The notes under the pieces are model-generated. The model had not been told where the DNA came from and did no database searches. It was given only the letters and a program-made list of their open reading frames with translations. A DNA stretch of 34,183 bases from a virus. The DNA lies in IMG/VR virus record IMGVR_UViG_3300045988_090145; one strand, given 5' to 3'. The translations under genes and the position numbers were made by a program. Of this stretch, positions 7,341 through 33,043 are shown in pieces (the first letter of the stretch is position 1; every line of letters begins with the position of its first letter).

Positions 7341-7384
7341 TTAATTAACTCACAAGACGCGGGCGACTAGCGAGGATGTTGGTT

Positions 7385-13068: not shown

Positions 13069-13989
13069 ATGGCAACAAACACAACCGCAACGCTTTCTGC
13101 CGAGATGATCCAATACCTGGAGGAAAAATTCTTGGAGCGAAGCGAAGCCCGCACAATTCACCTAGAAGGTGCTAAAAAGAAAACTCTAGGAAAAAACTCT
13201 GGTACAACGGTTACCTTTACAAAACGATCACCATTTGGCTTGGCTACAACGCCATTGACAGAAGGTGAAAACCCACAAGACGAAGCTATCCGAAGCAACA
13301 AAGTCGTTGCTACTCTACGTGGCTACGGTAAGTGGACTAAAATCTCAAGCATGCTGTACAACACTTCAATCGATCGCGAGATGAAAGAGACGATTGAAAC
13401 TATGGGTCAAAATGCAGGTGAAACAATCGACGCATTGGTCCGTGACGTATTGCACCAGGGTGCGACAGTACAGTTTGCAAATAAGAAAACTGCATTGAAC
13501 GGCATTACTGCTGACGATATCCTGACGGTAGCAGAAATCCGCAAGGCTGTACGTACATTGAAGAAAAACAACGCAATCCCATATGCAGACGGATTCTTCA
13601 TTGGTAAGGTTGGTCCAGATACTGCATACAACATTACTGGTGATACAGCTTGGATTGACGCCCAGAAGTACACTGGCCGTGCAGAACTATACAAGGGTGA
13701 ACTAGGTCGCTTGCATAAAGTCCGCTTTATCGAAGCGTCAAGCAACCAGAAGGAAGAGGCAAGTACAACAACTGTCTACTCAAACTTCATTCACGGTCAA
13801 GAGGCATTCGGTGTTGTCGACTTAGCTGGTAGCGGCCTGAAGAAGATTATCATCAAGCAGTCAGACAAGGGTGATACATCTAACCCACTCAACCAGTTTA
13901 TGACCATTGGTTGGAAGGCGGAGGCATTTGCTTCAGCAGTCCTTGATCCAAAGTGGATTATCAACATTAAGACTGGTGCTAAAGACTAG
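13069..13989 (+). CDS. Major capsid protein (putative).
   Basis: 306-aa protein after the scaffold gene with strong RBS aaaggttaataacATG. Assigned by position and size. Confidence 0.55.
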   Translation: MATNTTATLSAEMIQYLEEKFLERSEARTIHLEGAKKKTLGKNSGTTVTFTKRSPFGLATTPLTEGENPQDEAIRSNKVVATLRGYGKWTKISSMLYNTSIDREMKETIETMGQNAGETIDALVRDVLHQGATVQFANKKTALNGITADDILTVAEIRKAVRTLKKNNAIPYADGFFIGKVGPDTAYNITGDTAWIDAQKYTGRAELYKGELGRLHKVRFIEASSNQKEEASTTTVYSNFIHGQEAFGVVDLAGSGLKKIIIKQSDKGDTSNPLNQFMTIGWKAEAFASAVLDPKWIINIKTGAKD

Positions 13990-14958: not shown

Positions 14959-14996
14959 ATAGGTACTTTAGTAAGTAAATGGGAGGCTTTACTAAA

Positions 14997-15467
14997 ATGG
15001 TATCTAAGGACAAAATCATCAAAAGCACTATTGGTGCTGTTATTGGCGTAGCTGCAGTAGCAGGTATGGCTGGAGCTGCAAATAATAGTCAGCCACAGCA
15101 GACTATAGCGCCAGTAGTACAACCTGTAACATATTCAGACTGTAGAACGGAAGAAATACCGTTTGAAACACAGTACGAAGGTGAAACAGGTCAATATGGC
15201 TACACTGAAACTATAAAGCAACAAGGTGTAGCTGGTAGTAAAAAGATTTGTAAACCAAGCAAACCAGGGTATGAAGATAAGGTGGAGGTTATAACTCAAC
15301 CTGTAAACCACGTTATCGTTCGTACACCTAAACCTGCACCGCAACCAGTACAACAGCAATCACACTATCGTGTCGGAGCAATCTGCCGTGACGGTTGGCA
15401 ATCACATGCTACTGGAAGAGGAGCATGTTCACATCATGGTGGAGTAAGCGAGTGGCTGTATGAGTGA
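14997..15467 (+). CDS. Membrane-anchored DUF3761-domain protein.
   Basis: N-terminal TM/signal segment IIKSTIGAVIGVAAVAGMAGAA. C-terminal AICRDGWQSHATGRGACSHHGGVSEWLYE fits the DUF3761 consensus C-DG-x-S-x-S-x2-R-G-x-CS-HGGV-x-W. ATG 14997 follows gggagg. Confidence 0.6.
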   Translation: MVSKDKIIKSTIGAVIGVAAVAGMAGAANNSQPQQTIAPVVQPVTYSDCRTEEIPFETQYEGETGQYGYTETIKQQGVAGSKKICKPSKPGYEDKVEVITQPVNHVIVRTPKPAPQPVQQQSHYRVGAICRDGWQSHATGRGACSHHGGVSEWLYE

Positions 15468-15951
15468 TTGGCACGTGTGGCTTTTCTATGGCACCGCTGC
15501 ATTTATTTCTGTATATTCAGTCATAACCTGGAAACAAATAATGTGGCTATATACGCTGGCATCGCCATATGGAGTTGATGATAACGATGTTGCTATAAAG
15601 ATGTTTTCATGGAGCGCTCTGCGTCAGTTGGCTGCTAGTACCTTTTCCATACCGGCATTCATTTTGCTTGGTCAAAAATGTATAAGTAGTATTCCAACGG
15701 AGTTTGTTACTGTTCCATTTACTTTAGTTATTGCTACAGTAATATATACACTTGGATGTAGCTATTCAGCACCAGAAAAAGCATTTTATAGGCTCAAAAA
15801 GTATGGATACTTAGCAGAGGATGCAACTGGTAATGGGGGATGGATAGAATTTACCATTCGCCATTTTATGCAATATACCTATGGGATGGTCCTGTCCCTT
15901 ATTGGTATTATTGCAGTGTCTATATTTCTTCTGTATATAGCGTTATTCTAG
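15460..15951 (+). CDS. Polytopic membrane protein (hypothetical; exclusion/immunity candidate).
   Basis: 163 aa with about 4 predicted TM helices. Overlaps the upstream gene by 8 nt. Confidence 0.5.
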   Translation: MSDWHVWLFYGTAAFISVYSVITWKQIMWLYTLASPYGVDDNDVAIKMFSWSALRQLAASTFSIPAFILLGQKCISSIPTEFVTVPFTLVIATVIYTLGCSYSAPEKAFYRLKKYGYLAEDATGNGGWIEFTIRHFMQYTYGMVLSLIGIIAVSIFLLYIALF

Positions 15952-16511
15952 CGTGCTACACAAAAATGTTGCACTACAACCCTACCATCACCTACGCCAA
16001 TACCAGTATAGGTGTACTTGGGGTCGAGCATGGCAGCTTTGTGCGGCGGTGAACTAAGCCACCAATCTATAGATTGCTTTGTATCTGTTCCGCTATCGTT
16101 CCAAGTCAAGTTTTCGCTGGCGTTTGTGCAAGCGGCAACTTGAAGTCTCCTCATTTCTTCTGTAAGCGGTTGGTTCGTGTCTGGCATGTAGTGTCCGCGA
16201 TAATTCCTGGCTATCATGTCGTCGGCTTTCATTTGAGCGGTCTTAGATAAGTTTGGGTGCAGTTTTAGTGGTGCAACGCCGACTTTGGCTCGTTCAATAT
16301 TGACGGCGTTCAATATTGACAGTTCTGTCGGCGGTTCTATCTTTTTGCTATTAGATAATTTGTTGGTATTTTGAAACGAAGGCGATTCTACGACAGGGGT
16401 TGTCTTTGTTATCTCTGCATTACGTTGAGCGACAAATAAATAGGCAGCAACTGCGCCAACGACTACTGCGATGCTAACAAAAATGACAAGAATAAATTTA
16501 GTCTTTTTCAC
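15948..16511 (-). CDS. Secreted/membrane-anchored CAP (SCP/PR-1, YkwD-like) domain protein; the only minus-strand gene.
   Basis: Signal/TM MKKTKFILVIFVSIAVVVGAVAAYLFVA, then CAP-domain motifs (LN-VN-ERAK-G-APLK, HYMPD...ENL, IDWWLSSPPHKAAMLDP, YTGIGV). GTG start sits 6 nt after its own -10, which suggests a leaderless transcript. Confidence 0.65.
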   Translation of the reverse strand: MKKTKFILVIFVSIAVVVGAVAAYLFVAQRNAEITKTTPVVESPSFQNTNKLSNSKKIEPPTELSILNAVNIERAKVGVAPLKLHPNLSKTAQMKADDMIARNYRGHYMPDTNQPLTEEMRRLQVAACTNASENLTWNDSGTDTKQSIDWWLSSPPHKAAMLDPKYTYTGIGVGDGRVVVQHFCVAR

Positions 16512-16517
16512 GCCGAC

Positions 16518-16546
16518 AGTATAACTGAAATCATCAGATTTGTCAA
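16518..16546 (-). promoter_or_regulatory. Near-consensus sigma70 promoter for the CAP gene (minus strand).
   Basis: Reverse complement reads TTGACA, 17-bp spacer, TATACT, then gtcggcGTG (the start codon). Confidence 0.6.
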
Positions 16547-16581
16547 TAACACTCCAAGTTACAAAAAGGAGTGTTTTTCTT

Positions 16582-17751
16582 ATGCAAGGAAATGAATCAT
16601 ATCGTCAATACCTTCAGTACCACGCAAATAACCACCCGTCAGCAACCAAACGAGCAGAAGCTCAAGCCCTACTAAATGTTACTGGAGATGACGGTGGACT
16701 TAACGGCTACTTCCTAATGGGTAATGGCACTAATAATAGAGGTCAAACTGTCGGAGAGCAAAAGTCAAACGGTTACACTGCATCATCCCTCAACCGTTCA
16801 GTCAATCCATGGTGGATGAATTCATATGCTAACTGGCAACATAGTCAAAAACAGGGTGGCGCGAACCTCAACCTCGACCTCGGCGGAGGCAGAGGAGGCG
16901 GTGGCGGTGGCGGAATGGGCGGTGGTAACCGTGCCAGTGCCGCTCAGTTGGCAGAATATGACCAAGGTATTGGACAGCTAGAACACGGCTTAGGACGTAT
17001 AGATAATCAATTGGGTGTACGCCTAGGCAATATCAACAATCAGTACGCCACCAAAAAGAACGAATTAAAGAGTTCATGGAATAGGGCAGAAGGTCAATTC
17101 AACGACCAGACACGTCAAAATCAGCAACAGCGACGTACAAACATCAATAACATTAACGATCGCTCAGCAGTTGGCTTACGTGGCTTATTGCGCTCATTAG
17201 GAAGTATGGGTGCAGTAGGTTCAGACATGCAATTAGCAGGTCGCGCAGTTCAGAACCAAGCCAACCAGCAACGAACAGGTGCAGGACAGACTTACGCACA
17301 GAACCAAAAGCAAATCGACACCACATGGGGTCAGTTTAAGAATGATTACGCGGATGAAGACAAAAAGCTTAATGACTGGAAAGCAAACGAAGATAACGCC
17401 GCACGTCAGTCATCTCAAACTACACGCCAGAACCTACTAACCCAGTTGGCTCAGATGAAGAGCCAGAAAGCCGCCGCACAGGGCGCTAATGGTGCTAATG
17501 CCGCACGTGCAGACCTTGGACGAGCAAACGCTCTATCAAGCGAAATTGACAACCTAGGACGTCAGCAAAACACATACAGCGGTAATAAGGTCCAGTACAA
17601 CGCGAAAGACCTAGACAGCTACAAGGTAGAAGGTGATACAGCAGTTGGTGTTTCAGATCCACAAGCAGCAGGTAATGACCCAACACTAAACATCTACAAC
17701 ACACGTCTAAAACAAGAAGACGAGCGTAAACGTCAGAATCAATACCTGTAA
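16582..17751 (+). CDS. Gln/Asn/Gly-rich hypothetical protein (internal virion/ejection protein candidate).
   Basis: ATG after aaaaaggag. 389 aa with a GGGRGGGGGGGMGGG tract and QNQ-rich coiled-coil-like sequence. Sits directly upstream of the giant ORF. Confidence 0.55.
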   Translation: MQGNESYRQYLQYHANNHPSATKRAEAQALLNVTGDDGGLNGYFLMGNGTNNRGQTVGEQKSNGYTASSLNRSVNPWWMNSYANWQHSQKQGGANLNLDLGGGRGGGGGGGMGGGNRASAAQLAEYDQGIGQLEHGLGRIDNQLGVRLGNINNQYATKKNELKSSWNRAEGQFNDQTRQNQQQRRTNINNINDRSAVGLRGLLRSLGSMGAVGSDMQLAGRAVQNQANQQRTGAGQTYAQNQKQIDTTWGQFKNDYADEDKKLNDWKANEDNAARQSSQTTRQNLLTQLAQMKSQKAAAQGANGANAARADLGRANALSSEIDNLGRQQNTYSGNKVQYNAKDLDSYKVEGDTAVGVSDPQAAGNDPTLNIYNTRLKQEDERKRQNQYL

Positions 17752-17776: not shown

Positions 17777-20700
17777 ATGGACTTTTTCCAAAGAGTAGGC
17801 AACTTTTTTCAAGGAAAGGGCTGGGTAAGCGATGATGAACGTCGACGTAAAGAGCAACAAGTTCAAGCGCCAGTTCAACCACGCCCTCAGCCATTACAGC
17901 AAGTACAGCAACCTAACATTAACAGACTAAACGGTCTATCTGGTGTAAATACACCTGGGTTGGGTGGTGGTACTAATATATTCAGCCAAGCTCAGCAAAA
18001 AGTAAATCCTAATCCCCTTCAACAGGCTAATCAAGCAACACAACAGCTAAACCAAAATAATCAGCCAAAGCCATTAGTCCCAGAAAAGACTGTCAATGAC
18101 GCCCCTAAGGTACTAACCCCTCAAGGGCAACAAGATTGGGTAAACAAAGAAAACAAGCAGATCCAAATCCAGAATGTCATAAACAATCCTACTCAGGTAC
18201 TTAAAACTCAGGTCCAACAGCAACAACCAAAGCCAGCACCAGTAGCTATTCAACAACCCCAACAGCAGAATAGACCACAAATAGCCCCAAGTTTTGCTAA
18301 TCCTGGAAGAAATCCTTTATTTACCCAAAATCAGGACAGCTTAACCCGCGCCCTAGATATAGCAAAACAAGAGAGTGACAAATATAAGGCGGAGCAGGCA
18401 GCACGCAACGACAAACTAGACAACATTATGCGAGCAAGGGGTGTTAGCGAGCCAGAAATCGCTAAGAACCGCCAAGTACGTATTGACGCAGAGAACAGAG
18501 CTTATTTATCACAAGATAAGGCTAGACGCGATAGCAATATTGCACAGATGGCGGGACTGGCTACTTTACCAACGCGTTCAGTGGTTAGCTTCACTAAAGG
18601 TGCTATTGACGGTGCTGGTCGTACAGTTGGTGATTCAGGCGATAAACTATCTCTAGCTGTCGCAGACGCCATGTACGGCATTACTGGTGATGAATCATAT
18701 GACAAAATACGAAAATATATTGTAGAACAAGGTAGGCAACGTAACGCTCAATACGATCGAGACCTAGGCGTATTTAAGAAGAACGACACAGATGTTGCAA
18801 CAGCTTACGAGGCGGGTCAAAGCGCTCAAAGACTAGCTCAAGATATAGGTACAGGCGTAGCCACTGGCGGTACTATACCCGTAGCACGTCAGTTTGTAGA
18901 AAATGCGGCGGACTTTATTACTAACGCAAACGCTAAAGGTAAGAGCACACGTGAGATGTTGCCATATGCGTATGGTCACGCGGGAGTTCAGGCGTTAATA
19001 GAGAAGGCTGGGCTAGACAAGGTCTTATCGCCTATCGGCAAAAGAGGTCTGACTAAGTTTATAACAGGTGCTATAGCAGAAGGTTCGGAAGAAGCCGCCC
19101 AACAATTGGCAGAGAATGCAATTGCTAAGCATACATACGATCCTAACCGTAAATATGAAGAAGGCGTCCTTAAGAGCGGTCTTATGGGTGCGGTCCTTGG
19201 CGGTCCAGCTGGAATGGCTAATTTTGGTGCTATGCGACAGACTGGCAATCAACCATCGAGTGCAATGACTGCACGAATGAATCAAAATGAAGCTACTGGA
19301 AAACTAGAAAAAGAGGCTATAGCTCAACGTCAAGCACGTCAATCGTCGGACGACACCTCACTCAAACAAGCGGCAGAAGTAAATGTAGCTAATAATCAAA
19401 ACAATCAATTACATCCAATCCAATCAGTAAATGTAGCCCCAGCAGTAGAGAGTACTATACCTAACGCTAGCCCAGCACTAAAACAAGCCGTTACCCAGAA
19501 TATGTCAGATATTCAGCACGGTGATGTAAATGCTGTTGCCACACGCCAACAAACAACAGGAATACTAGAAAACTATCTGATAGAACAAGCTACAAAAGAC
19601 GTACAGAACTTAGTTAGCCCAGAAATGAAGTACAAGCTCAATCCAGAGCATGAAGCCCAGGTGATAGCTTATAACGAGCATATAACACGTTTACGACAAC
19701 GTGAAGAATACTTACGTGGTCAAGGAATGAGCGAAAATGCCCCAGCCATGATTAATCTACGTAAAGCTCAAGAGCAAGCTATATACGCCAGAGATCATAT
19801 CGGTGAAGTAGATGAGAACGGATTGAAGTATAAACTAAGCCCAGAACAAGAAACGTTCTTCAAGGACTCTAAGATCCGAGACGAAAATGGCAATCTTAAG
19901 ACTGTATACCACGGCACAGATGCAAAGTTTGATGTATTCAATCCAAACAATACATCATCTAATAAGTGGGGTGCTGGTAACTATTTAGCGTTTGATGAGA
20001 ACGCAGGCAAGAATTACGGTAAGAACGTAAAAGAGATGTATGCAAATATTACATCTCCAATTAGCGATAAACAAAAGACAATCTCCTTTGATCAGTATGA
20101 TGCCCTACATCGACGGGTAAATAACGGCGAGCCAGCATATCGTGAAGATTATGATATGTACGATAACGACATGGATTTGTTGTGGGATATTACTGACAAT
20201 GGGCAATGGAAAAAATATGCTCAAGATATCAAATACACCACTGGTAAAGATGGTTTGATTATGGATGATATGGCAATTACTTTTAGCCCAAATCAGACCA
20301 AATACACCAACAATCTCAACCCAACAGACAGCCCAGATATGCGGTTTAAGCGTCAGGCAGAGGCTAAAATACAGGAAATTCAACAATCAAAAGAGTTGCT
20401 AGCACGTCACCTACAACTGACAGGTGATGAGAACCTTGTATTCAATGAGTGGCAAAATGAAATGCAAAAAAGAGCATTGGGCTACTACGATCCAAAGACT
20501 GACACCATAAACCTAAACAAGCTTACAGAAGACACCCTAAACCACGAATTAGGACATAAATTACTTACACGTGTAGAAAATAAACAAGACCTATTAAACG
20601 CTATCCGTGAGTCTTATGGAGATGACTATTTAATAAACAAATATGGCAGTCAATATGGAAACGACTTGAACCTACTAGCAGAAGAGCAGCTAGCCGACGG

Positions 20701-23700
20701 ATTCAGTGATTACTACAATGGAAGACTAAATGGTGAAGATAAAGTGCGTCTAGGTACTAGATTAGGTATTCCTCAAAAAGTCTTAGCAATATATGACCGA
20801 ATTACTGAGGCTGTTATGGGGCTTGTTGGTAAACAAGACGCCATTAAACAATTCTACGCCCAAATGGAGACTGGGAAGTTCAGAACCAAACAACAAGTAC
20901 CTGGTGGTGATGGGCAGATTAGGACGATGAGTATTCAGCAAAGTAGAGACGGCACACCTGTTGTTGTGATAGAAAACGATATCCTTGCTGGCGTTCCCGC
21001 TAGAAATCGTGCACGAGTAATAAACGAATATTTCAAAGAAAACCTTCAAGGCAATAACTACGACCTGGACTACGGTAAGGACGGTACGGCTAGAATTAGC
21101 GCTAAGACACGTAATAAATACTTAGACCCGGGGCAGACTGTTGATGATCTGATTGCCAAGGGAAAGATGGCAGGTGAACTACCAGACATACTGCGTATTT
21201 CAAAGAAGGTAGGCTACGCCGCTGATACTAAAAATCATGGGTTCGCCGCCGAAGGATTCGAGTACAGACAAGCCATTGTAAAGATGGGCGAGAGTACATA
21301 TAAGGTCAGATTAAATGTTGGAATTAACAGTAAGGGAAAGCTTCTCTACGCCGTAAATGGCATAGAAAAAATCCCCGAATCCCATTACCGGGATTTAAGT
21401 GGGGATTCTTCTAGCTCTACTATATCAAATCAAAATGAGAATGTCAATACAGACAGCCGTTATCAACATCCTCTTCAAGAAACTATTAACGAAATGGAAG
21501 CCAACCCTAAGCCTAAGATGACTAGGGAATTAAGAGAGGCTATAGACGAGTTTATATATGAGAATATAGACCAGAATCTATTCCTAGAACATAATGACAC
21601 AAATATCCTCGGAAGTCATGGATTGACGTGGAGTATCCCACGCCTGCATGTAGACGACCTACGACACCACCTAGGAAAGGAGTTGGCTGGAGATCTACCG
21701 TCTAACTATAAACGCCGTACTGGTAAGCGAGATATCGATATAGTAGCTCAGGAGATGGGGTATGACGATATCGACGCATTTATCGATGAAATTAAGCGAG
21801 TAGCTGAAGCGCGACGCGCAGAAAGAGAGAGAAAGACCCTATTGGCAGAATGGCGTAGGGATCCAGATGTTATTCAAGAAGCTCAGAAGATGATTGCGGA
21901 GCGACACGCAGAAGAAGCTAAGGTAGAGGCTGAGAAGCAAAAGAAAATAGAAGAAGCGAAAGCGGAAGAAGAACGACGTACTGAAGAGGCTAAGGCAGAA
22001 AAAGAGAGAATTGAAAAGCAGCGGGCACTAGGAGAAATACTAAATAGAGGATTAGATGAAGGTCCAAGGCACAAAATAGCAGATATAGTACATAATGCTA
22101 GTGTAGCTACTGGTATTGATGAAAAAACCGTTGCAAAACAATTTGCTAAACTAGCCGAACAGAAAGGCTATGACATTACTGGAGAAAGGGCGCTACTAAA
22201 CACCAACGCCCGCGCTGGTAGTATGTTAGATGAAAATGGACGATTACGCCCAATAGACGAAATAGCACCAGAAGTAAAAGAAAAGATTAAACTACCTGGA
22301 GCGGAACACGCGGTCCCAGCACCTACAACTACTGCAAATACAGCTACCCACAATACACGACAGATGATTTATAAGGACGAGAAGGGTGCATACCATTCAT
22401 TCTATGAATACAGAAATATCTTTGGTAAATGGCAGCGAACAGGCGCCGAAGCACCAAAAGTAACTTCACCACTACAAAAGAAATTCATAGACGATATTAG
22501 ATCAGACAAGGCAGTCAATGATGAAGCTAAGCGTGCATTTGATGACGGTCTAGCCATTCAGTACATATGGAGAGAGAACTCTAAGGGTGTAAATGCTGAA
22601 CTAGTGAGTGCTTTTGATGGTTATATGCAAACTGGAGATAAAAAAGCATATCGTCCAAGTGATAAGCTAGTTACATTCGATCCAGACAAGCACTATATAG
22701 AATCTGGTAGAGTAGTGGACGCACAAACTGGTCAAATTCTAGGTAACTATATTGAAATGACCCCTGATGGCAACGTAACTATATATGCAGGTAAAAAGAA
22801 GATGAACCTGAATATGCACGATGTTGACTTCAGTAAAATCAAAGAAATGCGCTTTGGTGCAGGTCAAACATGGACTACTGAAGGAATAATAGACCGTATA
22901 ACAGGCTCATTGAGGCGAAGCAATAGCCTTGATTACTTTAAGAAGGGCGGCAATAAAACTAAAGAGGCGTTACTGAATATTATGTCTGAAACACCTCGTC
23001 AAGCTAATGCCGCCGCAGTAAAAGAAGGTAATGCTATCGGTAAACAGATAAAAGATTATCGCAAAAACTTGCTAAAACAAGCCAAAAAGCACGGTCCACT
23101 AAAGCGCCAAATGCTACAAGACGCCGTATATGTAATTGAACCATCACGTCCAAAACGTGGCGAAAAATCACCATCATACGATGAACGCTTGAAAGTATTT
23201 GAAGAAGTTTACGGAAAGAGTGCCGCCGAAGCTCTGGATCAATACAACAGCTTCTTACGTGCTGTATATAAGAACCTGCTAGCCCGCCAAAACGAAAAAA
23301 GGGTAGAGTTAGGTAAAGATCCAATTATGGAGCGTAAAGACTATATTACGCACCTAGGAGAAATGCAGTCTGGCAAGGGAGCTATCGCGGCTATGTATGG
23401 CGGTGCTAAGAACCTTCTGTCTGGCGGAGATGTGGCTATTGAATCTCGTCAATCACTACCAGCTAAATTAGCAGGTCGCACAGGACTATTCAAGCCAAGT
23501 CAAAAGTTTAATCAATTCGCTATGCAACGTGTAGGTGACGTAAAGCCAACAGATCCATTTACGCCACTAATGGAATACAGCAAGATAGCCCTACACAACA
23601 TTCATATGACAGATGCTATTACAATGAACCGCTCGCTGGAAGTAGCAGTGCGCGCAGCTAGCGAAGCACGACAAGAATTTGCAGGTAAGGGCACCAGTGG

Positions 23701-26308
23701 TATACAAAAGCTAGCTGACAGAGTAGACGCCCTGTATAATTCGGCTGCTTCTGGCAAGGTCAATGCTGAAGAGTTAACGCAAGTAAGAAATAAACTATAC
23801 GGATTAGAACGTGCAATTGGTCGAAAAATAGACGGTATACGAGAACTTAGTCGTCTAGTTAAAAAAGCTGACAAGTTTGGTGTAGATAAACTAGACGCAA
23901 AAGATATAAATGGTCTAAAAGAAACCACCAACAATATGTCTGAAAGTCTAGATAAGATGCTTAATGACGTAAACTTTATGAAGCTGATGTCTGATAGCGC
24001 AAACGGACTGACTCAATTTGTCGGATTTGTCCAAGAACATGCAAACCGACTGGCTGGGAAGACAGACCCATTCCAACGAGTCGTAAATGATACAGAACCA
24101 AGTAAAATACGAAAATTCGCAGATGCAACTGGTAGGGCGTTAATGAAGCAGGCGGCACTATCTAAGATTGTCGGCAATATGAATTCAGTGGTAGCTCAAA
24201 CAGCATCACTACCTGCCCTATTCTCTACAACCAGCCCTAAAGCATTGATACAGGCATTCAAGATAAAAAACCGCAAAGCCATACTGCAAAAGTCTGATGC
24301 TCTAGCCCTAAGGTATGCAGATGACAATCTGACGGATGACACCAAGTTTGAAAAAACTATGAAAACTGCTGGTATTCCTATGGAAGTAGTTGAAAGAGGC
24401 GTTATTGAATACACCTTCTTAGCTAAATACAATCAGGCAATCAATAATGGACTAAGCGACGCGGATGCAGTTAGATACGCAGAACGATTCATTAATGACA
24501 CGGTAACCTTACGCGATCAGATAAGCACCCCACGAGCATATAATAGGCTATGGTCTGCATCATTCTTACAGTTCACGCGAGAAGTGACACAACAGAACCG
24601 TTATGTATGGAACCAGATGTCTAATAAACAGAGGGTAGCACTCGCTGTTAATACGGCAATTGCATATAGTGCGATAGAAGCGCTAACTGGAAATAAGCCA
24701 GGGGTTGATCCATTAGGTACACTAATCGAGATTGTAGGTGACTGGTTGAGTGGTGGTGATGATGACGATAAAGACAATTCAGTGCAAGCTAAGCTAGAGC
24801 GTACAATCCAAAAAGTAGCTGGCCAGGCAATTACAGCTGCACCTATAGCTACAGCTATAGTTAATGCCGCAACAACAAAAGACGACCGCAAGAAGCTATT
24901 TGGTAAAGAGAGCAACTTAGGACGTTACGACGGTACAATACCAGTTGTTGATTTACCTCGTAAATTGATTGACACTAAGGGTAAATTGGATGAGGCAGCT
25001 AAAGCGCGTGAAGATGGTGATGACGATAAGGCAGAAGCAAAAACTAAAGACGCTATGTATAACATCCTAGGTCAATTACCAGCAGGTAGCCAATTAAAGA
25101 AAACTATTCAGGGTATTGCGGCAGCTCACTCTGGCGAAGTAAAAGACGGCAATGGCGAGACAAAGGTTGAGTTTGAAAAAGACAATCCATTCAATCTGGT
25201 CCAAGGCGCTCTATTCGGTAAAAATGCGCTAATACCAGTGCAAGTAGAAGAAGGAAAGAATTCGTGGGTCAATCTATTTAAGAAGGGTGGTCTAGTTGCT
25301 AACGCGTCTAATGGCCTACAAATAAATATGCCAACCAACAATAACCCGCAACAAAAACAAGCAACAGATAATCAGATAGACCTACAAGGGTTAAGTAAAA
25401 AAGAAGCCGCTTCAATTAAAAAGAAACTAAAGAAGGGCGACTATACATTCCAAGACGGATTGCTAGTAAACAAAAATGGTAACGTAGAAAAAGGTGTATA
25501 CAAAAAGCTTGCTCAATCTCAAGGACAAGGTGATGAAGCTTATCGCAACTGGATGAAGGCGTATGACATTGATAAAACGTCAACTATTAAAAAAGAGTTT
25601 ACTTCATTCAATGCAACATTAAATAAACTACAGAACGGTACAGAAAAGGTAGATAAAGCTAAAACTGCCGTCAATATGATGACTGGTAAATATAAAGACT
25701 TACCAGACTGGGTAAAAGAACGCTACTACAAAGAATCTGGATATACAAAGGATCAAATTGAGTACGGTGCTATGACATCTCATAACGAAGTAAGTCTGAT
25801 GGATAATTACTGGCGTCAAAAGGCTCAAGAATCATCACACGAGGATCTACTACAAGAACTAGCCAATGGCCGCCGAAAGAGTATTACAGGACAAATGTTT
25901 GCTAAGAATGGTGTAATCAACAAGCTGCGCGCTGAAGGTTACATCACTAAACAGGAAGCACGCGCCCTTAACGCTACTCAGTTTGATACCGACGGCAATA
26001 AGATAACCAAAGATACCTCAGGTGGCTCTGGACGCTCAGGTAGCGGAAGAGGTAGAGGACGAAGAGGTAGTAGCTCAAGCAGCGGCGGTAGCGCGTCTCC
26101 ACTATCTTCTGCAGTCACTAAGAGTATGGGTCTAACATCTTCTGCACCAAAAGCTAATGAATCATCCGCAAAAAACACAAGTATAAACCAAATCGGACAA
26201 AACCTAATAAGCAAGACTAATACTCAAAAACAGATAACTAATACATTAAAAAAGTGGAATGGTGCAAGCACCAGCAAAAACACGCGAATCCGCATTAAGA
26301 AAGCATAA
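17777..26308 (+). CDS. Giant 2843-aa polyvalent-type protein with a DT-like ADP-ribosyltransferase motif block and an HExxH zincin motif; probable injected virion protein.
   Basis: RBS attaggagggg. Q/P-rich N-terminal low complexity. VYHGTDAKFDVFNP...WGAGNYLAFDENAGKNYG resembles the diphtheria-toxin/ExoA YHGT...GNY NAD-binding motifs. LNHELGHKLL is an HExxH motif. EAK-rich coiled coil. C-terminal GGSGRSGSGRGRGRRGSSSSSGG tract. No internal stops over 8.5 kb. Confidence 0.75.
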   Translation: MDFFQRVGNFFQGKGWVSDDERRRKEQQVQAPVQPRPQPLQQVQQPNINRLNGLSGVNTPGLGGGTNIFSQAQQKVNPNPLQQANQATQQLNQNNQPKPLVPEKTVNDAPKVLTPQGQQDWVNKENKQIQIQNVINNPTQVLKTQVQQQQPKPAPVAIQQPQQQNRPQIAPSFANPGRNPLFTQNQDSLTRALDIAKQESDKYKAEQAARNDKLDNIMRARGVSEPEIAKNRQVRIDAENRAYLSQDKARRDSNIAQMAGLATLPTRSVVSFTKGAIDGAGRTVGDSGDKLSLAVADAMYGITGDESYDKIRKYIVEQGRQRNAQYDRDLGVFKKNDTDVATAYEAGQSAQRLAQDIGTGVATGGTIPVARQFVENAADFITNANAKGKSTREMLPYAYGHAGVQALIEKAGLDKVLSPIGKRGLTKFITGAIAEGSEEAAQQLAENAIAKHTYDPNRKYEEGVLKSGLMGAVLGGPAGMANFGAMRQTGNQPSSAMTARMNQNEATGKLEKEAIAQRQARQSSDDTSLKQAAEVNVANNQNNQLHPIQSVNVAPAVESTIPNASPALKQAVTQNMSDIQHGDVNAVATRQQTTGILENYLIEQATKDVQNLVSPEMKYKLNPEHEAQVIAYNEHITRLRQREEYLRGQGMSENAPAMINLRKAQEQAIYARDHIGEVDENGLKYKLSPEQETFFKDSKIRDENGNLKTVYHGTDAKFDVFNPNNTSSNKWGAGNYLAFDENAGKNYGKNVKEMYANITSPISDKQKTISFDQYDALHRRVNNGEPAYREDYDMYDNDMDLLWDITDNGQWKKYAQDIKYTTGKDGLIMDDMAITFSPNQTKYTNNLNPTDSPDMRFKRQAEAKIQEIQQSKELLARHLQLTGDENLVFNEWQNEMQKRALGYYDPKTDTINLNKLTEDTLNHELGHKLLTRVENKQDLLNAIRESYGDDYLINKYGSQYGNDLNLLAEEQLADGFSDYYNGRLNGEDKVRLGTRLGIPQKVLAIYDRITEAVMGLVGKQDAIKQFYAQMETGKFRTKQQVPGGDGQIRTMSIQQSRDGTPVVVIENDILAGVPARNRARVINEYFKENLQGNNYDLDYGKDGTARISAKTRNKYLDPGQTVDDLIAKGKMAGELPDILRISKKVGYAADTKNHGFAAEGFEYRQAIVKMGESTYKVRLNVGINSKGKLLYAVNGIEKIPESHYRDLSGDSSSSTISNQNENVNTDSRYQHPLQETINEMEANPKPKMTRELREAIDEFIYENIDQNLFLEHNDTNILGSHGLTWSIPRLHVDDLRHHLGKELAGDLPSNYKRRTGKRDIDIVAQEMGYDDIDAFIDEIKRVAEARRAERERKTLLAEWRRDPDVIQEAQKMIAERHAEEAKVEAEKQKKIEEAKAEEERRTEEAKAEKERIEKQRALGEILNRGLDEGPRHKIADIVHNASVATGIDEKTVAKQFAKLAEQKGYDITGERALLNTNARAGSMLDENGRLRPIDEIAPEVKEKIKLPGAEHAVPAPTTTANTATHNTRQMIYKDEKGAYHSFYEYRNIFGKWQRTGAEAPKVTSPLQKKFIDDIRSDKAVNDEAKRAFDDGLAIQYIWRENSKGVNAELVSAFDGYMQTGDKKAYRPSDKLVTFDPDKHYIESGRVVDAQTGQILGNYIEMTPDGNVTIYAGKKKMNLNMHDVDFSKIKEMRFGAGQTWTTEGIIDRITGSLRRSNSLDYFKKGGNKTKEALLNIMSETPRQANAAAVKEGNAIGKQIKDYRKNLLKQAKKHGPLKRQMLQDAVYVIEPSRPKRGEKSPSYDERLKVFEEVYGKSAAEALDQYNSFLRAVYKNLLARQNEKRVELGKDPIMERKDYITHLGEMQSGKGAIAAMYGGAKNLLSGGDVAIESRQSLPAKLAGRTGLFKPSQKFNQFAMQRVGDVKPTDPFTPLMEYSKIALHNIHMTDAITMNRSLEVAVRAASEARQEFAGKGTSGIQKLADRVDALYNSAASGKVNAEELTQVRNKLYGLERAIGRKIDGIRELSRLVKKADKFGVDKLDAKDINGLKETTNNMSESLDKMLNDVNFMKLMSDSANGLTQFVGFVQEHANRLAGKTDPFQRVVNDTEPSKIRKFADATGRALMKQAALSKIVGNMNSVVAQTASLPALFSTTSPKALIQAFKIKNRKAILQKSDALALRYADDNLTDDTKFEKTMKTAGIPMEVVERGVIEYTFLAKYNQAINNGLSDADAVRYAERFINDTVTLRDQISTPRAYNRLWSASFLQFTREVTQQNRYVWNQMSNKQRVALAVNTAIAYSAIEALTGNKPGVDPLGTLIEIVGDWLSGGDDDDKDNSVQAKLERTIQKVAGQAITAAPIATAIVNAATTKDDRKKLFGKESNLGRYDGTIPVVDLPRKLIDTKGKLDEAAKAREDGDDDKAEAKTKDAMYNILGQLPAGSQLKKTIQGIAAAHSGEVKDGNGETKVEFEKDNPFNLVQGALFGKNALIPVQVEEGKNSWVNLFKKGGLVANASNGLQINMPTNNNPQQKQATDNQIDLQGLSKKEAASIKKKLKKGDYTFQDGLLVNKNGNVEKGVYKKLAQSQGQGDEAYRNWMKAYDIDKTSTIKKEFTSFNATLNKLQNGTEKVDKAKTAVNMMTGKYKDLPDWVKERYYKESGYTKDQIEYGAMTSHNEVSLMDNYWRQKAQESSHEDLLQELANGRRKSITGQMFAKNGVINKLRAEGYITKQEARALNATQFDTDGNKITKDTSGGSGRSGSGRGRGRRGSSSSSGGSASPLSSAVTKSMGLTSSAPKANESSAKNTSINQIGQNLISKTNTQKQITNTLKKWNGASTSKNTRIRIKKA

Positions 26309-26415: not shown

Positions 26416-27081
26416 ATGAACACTACGCAACTTATATCGGCAGTTATGCTGAAAGCTACTGGTAAGGTGCGCAACCTACCAGAAACAGACAAGAAATACC
26501 AGAAAATACTAGGTATTGCTAACATGTATATCCCTGTATGGCAAAGTGAACCTAATGTCGATTGGCAGTCTCTATATGACCCTAATTACAATATCGGAAC
26601 ACTATCGACGAATCAGGAATATGAAATTGACTTTACTAAGGTTGCTAAGGTAAGCAACGTATACGGCGACACTATAAAGGTCAAAAAAGACAATCAGATT
26701 AAAGAATACACTACAGTGCCACCAGAGCAAGCGGGAATGTATAAGGGGCAAGACTGCTGTACTATATCTGGAAATAAACTAGTATTTATCGATCCTATAC
26801 GAAGTGACGACCCAGTACTTGGAGGGCAAATAACAATACCTGTATATTTACGCGCCCCACTGCTAGCAAGCCCAAGCGATATGGTCCCAGTAGACAATCC
26901 AATGTGGCTAGTGGTGATGTGTGCGGCTGAATATGCTCGCAACGACATTCTTCTGCAGAACCAATATGGCAATCTCATCAATGAAGCCAACCAGCTAATG
27001 GAGAAAATGGTAGAGAATAATGCTAGCCAAGCTAGATATGCACCTCTAAGTATGATTCCAGGAGTGTCTGACGTATGCTAA
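26416..27081 (+). CDS. Tail protein (putative adaptor/tail tubular protein).
   Basis: 221-aa ORF, the first of three post-terminator structural genes. Overlaps the next gene (ATGCTAA). Confidence 0.45.
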   Translation: MNTTQLISAVMLKATGKVRNLPETDKKYQKILGIANMYIPVWQSEPNVDWQSLYDPNYNIGTLSTNQEYEIDFTKVAKVSNVYGDTIKVKKDNQIKEYTTVPPEQAGMYKGQDCCTISGNKLVFIDPIRSDDPVLGGQITIPVYLRAPLLASPSDMVPVDNPMWLVVMCAAEYARNDILLQNQYGNLINEANQLMEKMVENNASQARYAPLSMIPGVSDVC

Positions 27082-29087
27082 AACCCCCTAGCAGCACTAA
27101 AGCACCAAAAATACAGCGGCTGTCGGTTGAGGATTGGACAAACGGCGTAGTCACTGCATTTGATGATGGTCGCTCACCGCTAAGAGGTCTAAGGTCGTCT
27201 GAGAATATGATATTGGATCAGGACTCTGTTATTACCGTGCGACATGGTACTGCTAAATATGGTCCCCAGCCATTAGGAACAGTCTTAGGTGAATTGGCTG
27301 AATTTCGTAGCACTACAAAAGATGGTTCTGTAAACTGGCTAGCTTGCCTTCAAAGAATAAACGGCAAAACAAAGCTATGTATAGCTAAAGGTGAAGACCC
27401 AGCGTGGCAAGTTGTAGAAGGTAAAGAATATCACGAATCCGCCCGCGGTCATTTCAAGCAAATACGCAACAATCTTCTAGTCATGAATGGAGAAGATACT
27501 CTTAGCTACTTGGATATACCAACAAAGAAGATAGTAGCATTTCAGAAAATATCAGACCCAGCAAAGCCAATACTAGATAAAAACGTAGGACTAACTGGTA
27601 CAGGATTTAAGGTATTTTATGCAGTTACCTTTAACTCTACTGTTGGTGAAACCGCAGGATCGCCTCTATTATCTCAAGCAATCTCTACAGACCGAGATAT
27701 GTGGAATGGTGAAAAACATAACCTGTCGGTCAAGCGTCCAGATAGTACAGAAGCTAAGTCGTGGAATATTTATTGTGGTGTTGGTGTTGACGGCGGCGGA
27801 GAGCCTACACTTTACCGTCTAGCTGCCGCACTACCAATGGATCAGACAGTATTTGTAGATAATGGATCACGTAGCTTAGACATGTCTGTACCTCTACCAA
27901 AAGACAATAATACGGCTGGTCCAAAAGCAACGCGAGCCGATGTAGTCAATGGCCGTATATGGATGACTGGCGATAAAGACAATCAATTCTATGTGTGGCG
28001 CGGTGGTGATTATGGTCATGAGCTAGACTTCTCACCTGGATATGGCGGTGGATATACGCCAGTAGGGAATGGTACCAAGGAAGTGCCATTTGCAGTACGA
28101 CCATATCGAGATGGTAAAGGCGACCCTAAAGTAACGGTCTTAGCAAACGGTACAAACGGTACTGGTAAACGATTCTATATTACACCGACAAACATTACTT
28201 ACGGTGAAGATACTATTACAGTCTGGCAAGTACAAGAAGATACTGGTGCTGACGGTACAGATAGCCCTGACGCTGTAGTCATTTACAATAACGACCTACT
28301 ATATCCAAGCCGTGGTGGATTTAATACTACAGGAACTCTACCGCAATTACAGAACGTCCTATCTACAAGACGAATTACTAACACTATTCAAGACGCTATT
28401 AGCAACCTAAACAGCAAAGCTATAGAAAAAGCCGTAGGTCTAGCATTTGAAGGACGCGTGTATTGGGCACTACCTGTTGCCGCTGACTACAACAATCAGA
28501 TATGGATTTATGATACCGATCGAAGAGGCGCGTGGATGAAGCCGTGGAGTATTCGTGCTGACTGGATGACACTATATAACGATAACTCAGGCATAACTCA
28601 CTTCTTAATAGTTCAAGGGAACAAGATAGTCGAGCTATCTAAGGGTGCAACTACAGTAGACGATGGTAAGCCGTTTAACACTAGCGCACAAAGCGGTCAA
28701 TTGCGATTTGAAGAAACTGGAAGAGATTGGGCGCGTGTACTCAAGGTGGTATTTGTACTACTCAGACCTCAAGGGCGCATTAATCTTACCGCCACCATTA
28801 AAACAGAAGACGGATTGCAGACATTTACAGAGACAAGATTTTTCGGAGCGTCTTCAAGTCGTACTGGATGGAGTGAGCCAGGCGTTGGTTGGAGCTCTAT
28901 TGGATGGAGCGAGGTGAAGGGTGTACCTGAAACATTTAACTCTGCCAGTGAAGAAGTAGAGCTGGAGGTGGATGAGGATGCTCACTGGGTGCAATACGGC
29001 TGGAGTTCATCAGACCCTGGCGTAAGTTACAGCATATCAAGAGTGGTATTTGAATACGTAAATATTGGCACGAAAGATCAAAGCTAA
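27075..29087 (+). CDS. Large tail structural protein (tail tubular/nozzle or spike candidate).
   Basis: 670 aa, Gly/Thr/Asn-rich beta-type composition. Located between the tail adaptor candidate and the fibre gene. Confidence 0.5.
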   Translation: MLKPPSSTKAPKIQRLSVEDWTNGVVTAFDDGRSPLRGLRSSENMILDQDSVITVRHGTAKYGPQPLGTVLGELAEFRSTTKDGSVNWLACLQRINGKTKLCIAKGEDPAWQVVEGKEYHESARGHFKQIRNNLLVMNGEDTLSYLDIPTKKIVAFQKISDPAKPILDKNVGLTGTGFKVFYAVTFNSTVGETAGSPLLSQAISTDRDMWNGEKHNLSVKRPDSTEAKSWNIYCGVGVDGGGEPTLYRLAAALPMDQTVFVDNGSRSLDMSVPLPKDNNTAGPKATRADVVNGRIWMTGDKDNQFYVWRGGDYGHELDFSPGYGGGYTPVGNGTKEVPFAVRPYRDGKGDPKVTVLANGTNGTGKRFYITPTNITYGEDTITVWQVQEDTGADGTDSPDAVVIYNNDLLYPSRGGFNTTGTLPQLQNVLSTRRITNTIQDAISNLNSKAIEKAVGLAFEGRVYWALPVAADYNNQIWIYDTDRRGAWMKPWSIRADWMTLYNDNSGITHFLIVQGNKIVELSKGATTVDDGKPFNTSAQSGQLRFEETGRDWARVLKVVFVLLRPQGRINLTATIKTEDGLQTFTETRFFGASSSRTGWSEPGVGWSSIGWSEVKGVPETFNSASEEVELEVDEDAHWVQYGWSSSDPGVSYSISRVVFEYVNIGTKDQS

Positions 29088-29102
29088 AGGAGGAATAACA
29101 AA

Positions 29103-29942
29103 ATGGCAAGTATTAGTGACAAAATTACAAAAGTAAAAGACGGCAGCAATCCTAACGTAGCGCGAGTAGTTACCCCACGACCCGCAAACTCTGACACTCT
29201 ATCTGTAGATAGTTTGACTGGTTGGACTGAAGATACTGCTGTGCATTTTATGACGTATAGAGTAGACTCAACTGGTAAAGTGGTCCCAGGTAGCCAGAGA
29301 GACTGGAAGGGTATGGCAAATAAGGCTACTGGTCAGATTATTAGTTTACAAATCCAGAATAACGCAATAGACGACGGTAACTTAGTTGGGGATATTGTTC
29401 AAGCTGGTCCTACTGCAGGCTGGGCGCAAGATCTAGCCGAGGCAATGCTAGAATCTCATAACAGCGACGGTTCTCTAAAAAAAGGTGCTGTAGGGGCTGA
29501 GAATATAGCCAAAGACAGTATTGTTGCTGAATCAATCAAAGAGAAATCTATCACAGCCGACAAGATAGACTTTACGACTATGCCGCTTGCAGAAAAAGTA
29601 AAAGTAAAGCGCAATGACATAACTACTGACAAGCCTGTGAACGTACAGTGTGGTTGTGCAAGAATACTAGTATCCTCTCCAGCCACTGAAGCCATTACTG
29701 AAATACAGTTTCCAAAACAGTTTAAGAGTGGCACGTTCCCTGTAGTAGTCTGTACATATACTGGCTATACCAGCTTCGCCAGCGATAAATGGACGGACGC
29801 TCCGCTTGGCACATGGGCTGGCGCAACAATGAGCGCATTAAAGATTACCAACTCATCATTTACAGCAGCTATCCGTCGTTTTGATGGTGCGACACTACAG
29901 GGTGCGTATTACTTTAACTGGATAGCAATAGGTCAAGCTTAG
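29103..29942 (+). CDS. Tail-fibre / receptor-binding protein with an invertible C-terminal region.
   Basis: Strong RBS aaggaggaataacaaaATG. 279 aa. The inverted-repeat crossover site lies at codons ~153-161 (DKIDFTTMP). The last structural gene before the lysis genes. Confidence 0.6.
   Translation: MASISDKITKVKDGSNPNVARVVTPRPANSDTLSVDSLTGWTEDTAVHFMTYRVDSTGKVVPGSQRDWKGMANKATGQIISLQIQNNAIDDGNLVGDIVQAGPTAGWAQDLAEAMLESHNSDGSLKKGAVGAENIAKDSIVAESIKEKSITADKIDFTTMPLAEKVKVKRNDITTDKPVNVQCGCARILVSSPATEAITEIQFPKQFKSGTFPVVVCTYTGYTSFASDKWTDAPLGTWAGATMSALKITNSSFTAAIRRFDGATLQGAYYFNWIAIGQA
29559..29584. repeat. Left 26-bp inverted repeat (candidate inversion crossover site).
   Basis: gacaagatagactttacgactatgcc. 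Its reverse complement matches 30293..30318 at 25 of 26 positions. Confidence 0.85.
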
Positions 29943-30415: not shown

Positions 30416-30817
30416 ATGCCAGGATCAAACACAGACCTAAGCGAACGCCTAGTCAAACTAGAGGTGTTCAATGAAAAAGTAGCAGAACCATCATTAGCTC
30501 AAATATTAGCCAAACTAGACGGGCTAGTAAGTGAGTCTGAATACGTAGAGCGAAAAAAATATGTTGATGGAAAAATAAATGATATTGAAAAGAATATCAA
30601 AGCAATTCAGTACCATAACGATACACTAGATGGCAACGTCTTCATAAAAGCCATCGTTACTGGCGAAAAGAAATTTGTAGGAGTAATCATCAAGTATACA
30701 GGTCTAGCCGTACTTATAGGCGCGGTAGGGTTATTTTTGCTTACTCAATTTACCCACCTTATTCAAGATAGAGCACCCGTTGAGGTAATAGAAAAAGTAA
30801 AGGAGGTAACAAAATGA
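30416..30817 (+). CDS. Lysis-associated membrane protein (holin-like, C-terminal TM).
   Basis: 133 aa with a coiled-coil N-terminus and one C-terminal TM helix, FVGVIIKYTGLAVLIGAVGLFLL. Directly precedes the endolysin gene (ATGA overlap). No RBS; the start immediately follows the terminator. Confidence 0.45.
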   Translation: MPGSNTDLSERLVKLEVFNEKVAEPSLAQILAKLDGLVSESEYVERKKYVDGKINDIEKNIKAIQYHNDTLDGNVFIKAIVTGEKKFVGVIIKYTGLAVLIGAVGLFLLTQFTHLIQDRAPVEVIEKVKEVTK

Positions 30818-31803: not shown

Positions 31804-32061
31804 ATGAAATCACTAGAAGCATTAAAAAATATCAATTATAAAGATGTAGTCATTCGTGCTGCGTGGACGTTCGTACAGACGTTTATCGCGACATTTTTAC
31901 TAGCTGGCGTAAACTTAGTAAACTTGCTATTCGCGGCGAGCTGGCACGAGCTATACGCTTTAACGATGGCTACTGCTCTGTCTGCAATTGCGGCTGGATT
32001 ATCTGCGGCTAAGACTATTATCCTAGACTTGGCGCGACAGATGAAAGAAGCCGTTGAATAA
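31804..32061 (+). CDS. Holin (Gram-positive phage type).
   Basis: Strong RBS taaggaggaaatATG. 85 aa with two TM helices (AAWTFVQTFIATFLLAGV; LTMATALSAIAAGLSAA) and a charged C-terminus. Adjacent to the endolysin. Confidence 0.7.
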   Translation: MKSLEALKNINYKDVVIRAAWTFVQTFIATFLLAGVNLVNLLFAASWHELYALTMATALSAIAAGLSAAKTIILDLARQMKEAVE

Positions 32062-32982: not shown

Positions 32983-33043
32983 AATAGAAAAATTGGGGCG
33001 TAAAGGTTACAAATTAAACCTAAGTCACTCTAAGGAGAGAAGA

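Follow-up and report, generated by a model that had tools for sequence, protein, structure and literature searches.

A giant open reading frame in a phage structural gene block

The virus record IMGVR_UViG_3300045988_090145 (IMG/VR), a stretch of 34,183 nucleotides (nt) referred to here as the window, carries between its head and lysis genes a giant open reading frame (ORF), the product of which is probably a virion-delivered polyvalent protein of a phage infecting oral Saccharibacteria. The gene (17777..26308, plus strand) opens with an ATG codon and extends without interruption over 2843 codons, its 8532 nt making up 25.0% of the 34183 nt of the window, in agreement with an earlier note, made from the sequence alone, that had singled out one uninterrupted ORF filling 25% of the genome. 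It is a real gene under strong purifying selection: dN/dS lies between 0.05 and 0.12 in its N- and C-terminal parts (against relatives that are 91-98% identical), and a protein search recovers 766 homologues at E <= 1e-3. Annotation of the family is nevertheless sparse. The whole gene has no match by megablast or tblastn in 50,697 records of isolate phages, the protein has none in PHROGs or NCBIfam, and the source names of ten family representatives are all missing or 'hypothetical'. In Pfam the whole protein matches ART-PolyVal alone, and a search of ten overlapping segments at E <= 10 adds only a weak LPD3 match.

The composition of the protein is much as the earlier note had described it. 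Its long N-terminus is rich in Gln and Pro (Q/N/P reach 43% in each of the first two windows of 100 amino acids (aa)) and includes a Q/N/P-rich low-complexity region at aa ~29-190 (17861..18346, plus strand). An EAK-rich stretch follows at nt ~21900-22050, with 50% charged residues in aa 1301-1400, and the C-terminus is rich in Gly, Ser and Arg (44% G/A/S in aa 2701-2800, with an RG/S tract, SGGSGRSGSGRGRGRRGSSSSSGG). The same note was silent on the host, the shuffling of cassettes, the conserved C-terminal module and the absence of cysteine, all of which are described below.

Effector-type domains

The most firmly identified domain is an ADP-ribosyltransferase (ART) of the ART-PolyVal family (Pfam PF18760; aa 702-848, 19880..20320, plus strand), which is matched over profile positions 1-137 of 140 with an E of 9.8e-14 and 52.7 bits, against a gathering cut-off of 31.2. 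The earlier note had proposed here an ART resembling diphtheria toxin, of the H-Y-E type. An ART it is, given a Pfam match above cut-off and motifs in their places, but the H-Y-E part of the proposal does not stand, because the family, also known as the Tox-ART-HYD2 clade, has its His in strand 1, its Tyr in strand 2 and an Asp in strand 5 (PMC5512222). In the giant protein, the motif VYHGT (aa 710-714) places H712 at about nt 19910 and the motif GNYLAF carries Y736. The patterns YHG[TS] (H712), G.G.Y (Y736) and G[YK]DG (D825) are conserved in the aligned ART domains of the giant-protein family, and the likely triad is H712/Y736/D825, i.e. H-Y-D, with D825 assigned on an alignment of nine sequences. 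An ART of the type of diphtheria toxin or ExoA was rejected on the same grounds of an Asp in the family (PMC5512222). No Pfam model of diphtheria toxin, ExoA or PARP matches the giant protein, the ART segment finds only chance matches among PDB sequences, and kinship with diphtheria toxin goes no further than the H-Y-[EDQ] superfamily. The domain scores below the ARTs of its relatives (52.7 versus 84-92 bits); its identity is firm and its enzymatic activity is predicted.

Immediately downstream lies a zincin-like metallopeptidase (MPTase) domain (aa 856-1045, 20342..20911, plus strand), which starts at the motif MRFKR (aa 856). The HExxH motif that the earlier note had read in LNHELGHKLL is found exactly at nt 20543-20557 (H923/E924/H927), and E969/E970 (20681-20686, plus strand), invariant in the alignment, provide a candidate third zinc ligand. 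Distant relatives of this region were gathered by HMMER because no Pfam family matched aa 851-1130; across 20 HExxH domains, down to 20% identity, H923, E924, H927, E969 and E970 are all invariant. By sequence, an HExxH followed by a Glu in the next conserved helix is a gluzincin pattern. In the AlphaFold2 (AF2) model of the domain an N-terminal helix comes first, then short strands, the helix with HExxH and the helix with the Glu, an order that fits the zincin core of one N-terminal helix, a sheet of three strands and two helices at the C-terminal end. The model has a mean predicted local distance difference test score (pLDDT) of 69, exceeding 90 in residues 81-150 of the model, from shortly past HExxH through the Glu helix, and amounting to ~69-81 on the strands and the HExxH motif and ~45-59 on the N-terminal helix. 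A Foldseek search with this model against PDB returns nothing significant, and the families Peptidase_Mx or DUF6782 are touched by the HExxH domains of 2 of the 20 relatives, at E 0.008-0.04. A link exists to the virion RNA polymerase (vRNAP) of phage N4: the HExxH profile weakly matches the HExxH domain of N4-type vRNAP among PDB sequences (HMMER, E ~0.1), and hhalign aligns it with the C-terminal domain of N4 gp50 over 133 columns that include both motifs (E 4e-4). The zincin assignment thus appears moderately well supported, with the invariant HExxH and EE, the predicted secondary structure and the N4 alignment speaking for it and the lack of a matching Pfam peptidase model against it; catalysis is predicted.

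Modular variation within the family

The central part of the protein is variable. Close relatives are 2536 to 3167 aa long, and across the family lengths run from 1250 to 3167 aa through gain and loss of cassettes. Insertions in relatives fall at aa ~610-630 and ~860, and consist of a second ART-PolyVal, a DUF3990-like ART, LPD3 or unknown modules. The first of these points corresponds in the giant protein to a short linker module (aa 618-683, 19628..19825, plus strand) that lies between MKYKL (618) and LKYKL (684), and it is here that length variants carry cassettes. A further variable slot follows the MPTase and is occupied in the giant protein by a divergent LPD3-like domain (aa 1103-1191, 21083..21349, plus strand). 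The match of this domain to PF18798 (21.3 bits, E 3e-4) is below the gathering cut-off of 27, and by BLAST it is 28% identical to the LPD3 cassette of a relative (P0075; E 7e-8), so that its identity as LPD3 is weakly supported by sequence. The occupant of this slot in some close relatives is an LPD3 scoring 41-42 bits, and those relatives of the 41% and 70% clades that were scanned have a PBECR3 RNase domain there, either single or in two copies. Comparison of 22 distant family members with Pfam brings up Zeta toxin, SHOCT and DUF6782 as well, and at least 18 architectures of the variable region were counted. Cassettes have been swapped between lineages, as mosaic identity profiles show: the C-terminal half of relative L051 is only ~25-30% identical to the query and its ART and HExxH domains are 81-86% identical, whereas relative L044 is more than 80% identical in its C-terminal half and only 36% in its HExxH domain.

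Every module border is marked by a short motif of the form [RK]-[YF]-K-[LIR]. In the giant protein this junction motif occurs as MKYKL at aa 618, LKYKL at aa 684 and MRFKR at aa 856 (19628-19642, 19826-19840 and 20342-20356, respectively, plus strand), and the same motif is seen at the points of cassette insertion in length variants, being more than 10-fold enriched at module borders. Directly past the HExxH domain, [YFW]K[ILMV] is present in 13 of 27 distant relatives, the expectation being 0.05 per sequence window. These motifs could be places where recombination joins modules, where a protease cleaves the chain, or both.

A constant frame around the variable region

The variable region is set in a conserved frame. 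At the N-terminus, a conserved peptide (aa 1-28, MDFFQRVGNFFQGKGW..DDERRRKEQQ; 17777..17860, plus strand) is common to all complete homologues, from fetched loci and metagenome matches alike; all of them open with MDFFQR.GNFF, including those in which the C-terminal part is 41% identical, and the peptide could be a packaging or ejection signal. An Ala/Gly-rich region follows (aa ~200-617, 18374..19627, plus strand), with Gly-rich motifs that are conserved in family alignments and, by hydropathy scan, a Gly-zipper-like hydrophobic segment at aa 463-486 (19163-19234, plus strand). Within it, aa 501-600 are 50-71% identical in all clades, and the region may act in membrane insertion.

Beyond the effector-type domains, an exhaustive HMMER search with aa 855-2054 against 1.84 billion representatives yielded 296 representatives at E <= 1e-3, mostly 1500-2900 aa in length. 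Many of these match positions 390-560 of the searched segment, which correspond to a conserved domain of unknown function (aa ~1245-1415, NPKPKMTRELR...IPRLHVDDLRHHLG; 21509..22021, plus strand) that ends in an EAK-rich helix at aa ~1380-1425. This domain is named in no library and also exists free-standing in metagenomes, in proteins of 158-303 aa (e.g. P0210, P0224, P0228, P0238 and P0258); it may be a further LPD-type domain. The larger part of the frame is a C-terminal module of ~1200 aa, which marks ~300 clusters at 50% identity, almost only from uncultivated phages. Its core (aa ~1630-2490, 22664..25246, plus strand), a small beta domain and, after it, an all-alpha body, is aligned in 80 of the 150 representatives listed, often on to the protein end, and contains moderately hydrophobic helices at aa 2131-2149, 2286-2305 and 2344-2366. 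The AF2 model of the C-terminal part has a pLDDT of 75 and a predicted template modelling score (pTM) of 0.64, with many helices 10-40 residues long, which suggests a folded body and not one extended coil. The module has no relative in Pfam, PHROG, NCBIfam or PDB sequences, and a structural or translocation role seems plausible. The sole match of the core consensus among isolate phages (tblastn) is MT835607.1, an unannotated 25-kb phage contig that carries a related head protein at 10587-11513 (30% identity) and a stretch resembling the C-terminal module at 19440-20159; because it comes from human faeces, the family appears to reach beyond the mouth.

The frame ends in a conserved helical domain (aa ~2601-2745) and a Gly/Ser/Arg-rich tail (aa ~2746-2780; together 25577..26116, plus strand). 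Residues 2601-2800 are ~62-76% identical in every clade, whereas identity elsewhere in the C-terminal half falls to 25-30%, and the last 43 residues of the protein are 53-67% identical. The helical domain is predicted by AF2 with a pLDDT of ~88-96 (model residues 1040-1150), and aa 2601-2800 could bind the portal or DNA.

Absence of cysteine

The giant protein contains 0 cysteines in 2843 residues, against an expectation of 25 based on the remaining ORFs of the window (P ~1e-11), and 80 of 90 giant family representatives are likewise devoid of this residue. So are gp50, gp51 and gp52 of N4, which are experimentally known to be ejected, the giant protein of podovirus vB_PunP_Y3 together with its ART protein, and gp20 of podophage Page; polymerases, primases, portals, capsid and tail proteins of the same phages, in contrast, do hold cysteine. 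This lack of cysteine fits unfolded passage through a narrow tail channel, but it does not discriminate between internal ejection proteins and tape measures. Should the pattern hold more widely, a cysteine-free signature might serve as a flag for ejected proteins in metagenomic phages.

Host and genomic context

Contigs from human oral metagenomes, the longest of 262 kb, encode the exact protein, and on them the same block of phage genes leads into an integrase and, beyond it, bacterial genes. When one genome of each prokaryotic species was scanned, ten loci came up, all of them in Candidatus Saccharibacteria or Ca. Nanosynbacter and including the cultured strain TM7-076 (366-kb contig), the copy of which is 96% identical, and a 714-kb contig of a metagenome-assembled genome. 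Given these bacterial flanks and the origin of all ten loci, the window is a prophage of oral Saccharibacteria (TM7), and the temperate lifestyle that the earlier note had assumed is borne out by the integrase and by the integrated state of the element in bacterial contigs. In a host genome of roughly 0.7 Mb, the giant gene (8.5 kb) alone represents ~1.2%, and none of the related phage contigs or prophage loci recovered is without it. That oral TM7 often carry prophages is on record (PMC7739484, PMC10746230); the passages of these two papers that were searched contain no mention of the giant gene.

Genes are arranged in the order terminases, portal, head protein, four small genes, CAP-domain moron, a 403-aa gene and the giant gene, after which come genes of 221, 670 and 279 aa, endolysin, holin and integrase. 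On the plus strand, PHROG matches identify the small terminase (7376-7915), the large terminase (7860-9362) and the major head protein (13069-13989), and a 644-aa product (9781-11715) is the probable portal by position and size only. The 403-aa protein (16540..17751, plus strand), directly upstream of the giant gene, has no family match and 0 cysteines, and may be a co-ejected or tail protein. The giant gene starts 26 nt past it, co-oriented and tightly packed with the virion genes. The 221-, 670- and 279-aa genes (26416..29942, plus strand) are placed immediately before the lysis genes and probably encode tail and receptor-binding proteins, the 279-aa product showing only a weak H-type lectin match. 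Apart from the matches given here, the neighbours of the giant gene find almost nothing in PHROGs and NCBIfam; sequence comparison of the portal, 670-aa and 403-aa proteins with solved structures returned nothing, and the window is free of tRNA genes.

The head protein shares 35% identity with its counterpart in the Bacillus megaterium podophage Page and is more distantly related to the head proteins of the Streptomyces Beephvirinae and of podovirus vB_PunP_Y3 (25% identity), the capsid protein of which is annotated as belonging to the N4-gp56 family. In each of the capsid-related isolates inspected, either the tail is short or no tape measure gene is annotated, and in two of them a giant gene also stands late in the structural block (gp20 of Page, 1679 aa, and the 3421-aa protein of vB_PunP_Y3).

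Three other genes of the window may be noted. A small structural-block protein (14979-15467) shows weak G5 and DUF3761 matches, G5 domains being typical of Gram-positive surface proteins. The CAP-domain moron (15948-16511, minus strand; PF00188) is matched in PHROG as a 'sporulation protein' of the moron category, and its gene is full length (187 aa) in some prophage copies and called as 89 aa in others. The endolysin (30814-31794, plus strand) combines, by family matches, Amidase_5 with ZoocinA_TRD, and is followed on the same strand by the holin (31804-32061) and the tyrosine integrase (32993-33991). An Amidase_5 with zoocin A-type target recognition is an architecture known from Streptococcus phages; here it belongs to a phage of Saccharibacteria.

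Function of the giant protein

The concept of polyvalent proteins was put forward with the N4 vRNAP, T4 Alt and P1 DdrB as precedents (Iyer et al. 2017, PMC5512222), and its application to this ORF by the earlier note is supported here. At least two unrelated effector-type domains are united in one polypeptide (ART-PolyVal, the zincin-like HExxH domain and the LPD3-like domain), relatives swap cassettes, and the gene is phage-encoded beside virion genes, between the head and lysis genes of an integrase-bearing prophage. The placement between head and tail genes, likewise claimed before, agrees with the head genes found upstream and the presumed tail and lysis genes found downstream. We therefore consider it probable that the giant gene encodes a virion-delivered, phage-type polyvalent protein of a temperate, probably short-tailed, phage of oral Saccharibacteria.

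For such a protein it seems reasonable to postulate the following scheme, in which ejection, enzyme activity, junction cleavage and targets are what we infer. The protein would be made late, together with the virion genes, and a few copies would be packed in the head. At infection it would pass through the tail as an unfolded chain, either before the DNA or along with it. The conserved frame (N-terminal peptide, Gly-rich hydrophobic region and ~1200-aa helical C-terminal module) would help it to cross, or to stay at, the cell envelope, and the exchangeable middle would be the payload, composed of an H-Y-D ART that might modify host targets via NAD+ and of the LPD3 domain. The HExxH domain might cut the polypeptide at the [RK]-[YF]-K junctions and so free the modules or, alternatively, might act like its counterpart in N4 vRNAP, a protein that needs its HExxH-bearing C-terminal region in order to be encapsidated.

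Several observations weigh against this reading or parts of it. Virion packaging and short-tailed morphology are deduced from gene order, capsid relatives and absence of cysteine, and the order giant gene, 221-, 670- and 279-aa genes, lysis genes also resembles the siphovirus succession of tape measure, Dit, Tal and receptor-binding protein. The C-terminal module matches only generic helical bundles among solved structures; profile comparison reveals no similarity between it and the C2 domain of N4, nor between gp20 of Page and the family profile. As regards the enzymes, D825 is read from nine aligned sequences and its place in strand 5 is presumptive, aa 851-1130 match no Pfam family even at E <= 10, and no peptidase model of NCBIfam matches the HExxH domain. 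Proteolysis by this domain is not assured either, because N4 vRNAP keeps its HExxH and yet is packaged uncleaved, the HExxH-bearing region being needed for encapsidation (PMC5512222), and peptidase activity of the N4 domain is not reported in PMC5512222 or PMC13434306.

The N4 precedent also lends itself to another explanation, namely that the giant protein is a structural ejection protein with inactive enzyme-like domains, the HExxH domain serving folding or encapsidation and the ART being a binding module. The lower score of its ART with respect to those of relatives would be in line with this. Nonetheless, the residues H, E, H and EE do not vary even in relatives of 20% identity, and the ART domains aligned retain H-Y-D, as befits active sites under selection, and the rapid turnover of effector cassettes between clades is typical of conflict enzymes; we thus regard inactivity as unlikely.

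Gene order likewise suggests that the protein might instead be a tape measure to which effector domains have been added, in a long-tailed, siphovirus-like phage, the helical C-terminal half of the protein setting tail length and being ejected as a channel, with the 403-aa protein as tail tube and the 221- and 670-aa proteins as Dit and Tal. The succession through 279-aa gene, holin and lysin mimics that of such phages down to the lysis genes, the four small genes between the head protein and the 403-aa gene are where connector genes would be, the C-terminal half is nearly all helical with hydrophobic segments, and tail passage might also favour an absence of cysteine. Against this, no tape measure, tail tube, Dit or Tal model of Pfam, PHROGs or NCBIfam matches the protein or its neighbours, and there is no room between 17751 and 17777 for chaperone genes, with or without frameshift. 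The pTM of 0.64 and the short helices of the AF2 model suggest a folded body as opposed to an extended coil, a family length of 1250 to 3167 aa that varies by cassettes fits a ruler poorly, and the capsid relatives inspected are short-tailed or devoid of an annotated tape measure gene. A tape measure is, on balance, distinctly unlikely.

The lifestyle of the host raises a third alternative. Saccharibacteria live attached to other bacteria, and the gene might encode a non-virion prophage toxin that benefits the lysogen, for instance one that Saccharibacteria release or deliver to attack competitors or their actinobacterial host. Polymorphic toxins do include ART, PBECR RNase and Zeta toxin domains (PMC5512222), and a CAP-domain moron resides in the same gene block. 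The giant gene is, however, co-oriented and tightly packed with virion genes, 26 nt past its upstream neighbour, and is found in every related phage contig or prophage locus recovered; Pfam and NCBIfam reveal neither a secretion signal nor an immunity gene nor a domain for toxin delivery, and in having no cysteine the protein resembles those known to be ejected, all of which makes a lysogen toxin very unlikely. Finally, an N4-like virion RNA polymerase was rejected: no RNA polymerase family matches the whole protein or its segments, and the PDB profile match to N4-type vRNAP does not extend beyond the HExxH domain.

Polyvalent proteins with ART and zincin domains have been known since 2017, and the ART family already has a Pfam model. 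What is new here is the host phylum, the C-terminal module of a large uncultivated family, the divergent MPTase clade, the junction motif and a cysteine-free signature shared with N4 ejection proteins. Saccharibacteria, epibionts of ultra-small size, are difficult to culture and, to our knowledge, almost nothing has been established on how their phages infect. The giant gene takes up a quarter of a prophage that is widespread in the mouth. Were its product injected, the targets of the ART would point to host processes that the phage must disable, and the family would constitute a natural library of interchangeable effector cassettes with a possible self-processing motif.

Comparison with known systems

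Tape measure proteins are very long, mostly helical and ejected; they are encoded before the distal tail genes and sometimes contain peptidase or lysozyme domains. The giant protein differs from them in having no tape measure model match and no chaperone genes, in a predicted fold that is not one coil and in a capsid lineage that is short-tailed. ArdC of plasmid R388 (PDB 6sna, with a C-terminal metalloprotease domain) is, together with N4 vRNAP, one of the two examples given for the MPTase of polyvalent proteins (PMC5512222), but it is a 297-aa conjugative-plasmid protein with an N-terminal domain that binds single-stranded DNA, it is not a virion component, and its sequence similarity to the giant protein is below HMMER detection. 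T4 Alt, an ADP-ribosyltransferase that is packed in the head, injected with the DNA and active on host proteins, offers a working model for the ART of the giant protein, from which it differs in being a single-purpose protein of 682 aa, of the R-S-E clade and from a myovirus (PMC5512222). Podovirus vB_PunP_Y3 of Pseudoalteromonas has a related capsid and, late in its structural block, a cysteine-free DdrB-ParB-like giant of 3421 aa. An ART of the same family is placed there on a separate, adjacent protein of 1027 aa (PMC11654794), the record has no annotated integrase, and hhalign detects no similarity of that giant to the MPTase profile or to the C-terminal module.

Closer parallels are found among the polyvalent proteins already described (PMC5512222), such as that of Roseovarius Plymouth podovirus 1 (ART, MPTase and N4-like RNA polymerase), which is likewise a single giant polypeptide with its gene among those for late virion proteins. 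These proteins share with the giant protein an H-Y-D ART that belongs to one Pfam family, a constant hub in the form of a zincin-like HExxH domain, LPD and PBECR cassettes and a quick turnover of domains. Unlike them, the giant protein lacks RNA polymerase, SNF2, methylase, DarA-N and MuF modules, its MPTase is too divergent for Pfam models, its C-terminal frame of ~1200 aa is unannotated in the libraries searched, and its host is a bacterium of the candidate phyla radiation.

The most extensive resemblance is to gp50 of N4 (3500 aa; PMC13434306, PMC13492108), which is built of a membrane-spanning N-terminal domain, a payload, the HExxH domain C1 and the helical domain C2 (PMC13434306). The giant protein presents the same order of membrane-type N-terminus, payload, HExxH and a helical C-terminus of more than 1000 aa that has no structural relatives; both proteins are cysteine-free and of a podovirus-type capsid lineage, and their HExxH domains align with each other (hhalign, E 4e-4). 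They differ in that the payload of gp50 is an RNA polymerase, whereas the giant protein carries an ART and LPD3, with extra cassettes between the HExxH domain and the C-terminal module, and in that ejection is proven for gp50 and, for the giant protein, one that we infer. A tentative and rather unlikely extension of these likenesses is that this family and N4 vRNAP might be two branches of one ejection-polypeptide design of short-tailed phages: cysteine-free, with a membrane-active N-terminus, an exchangeable payload, an HExxH domain and a large helical C-terminal body. The payload of this family would then be host-modifying enzymes in shuffled sets in place of an RNA polymerase, and its HExxH domain would cut the [RK]-[YF]-K junctions after entry. 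If this were true, a single protein could supply a Saccharibacteria phage with both its envelope-crossing device and its whole host-takeover kit.

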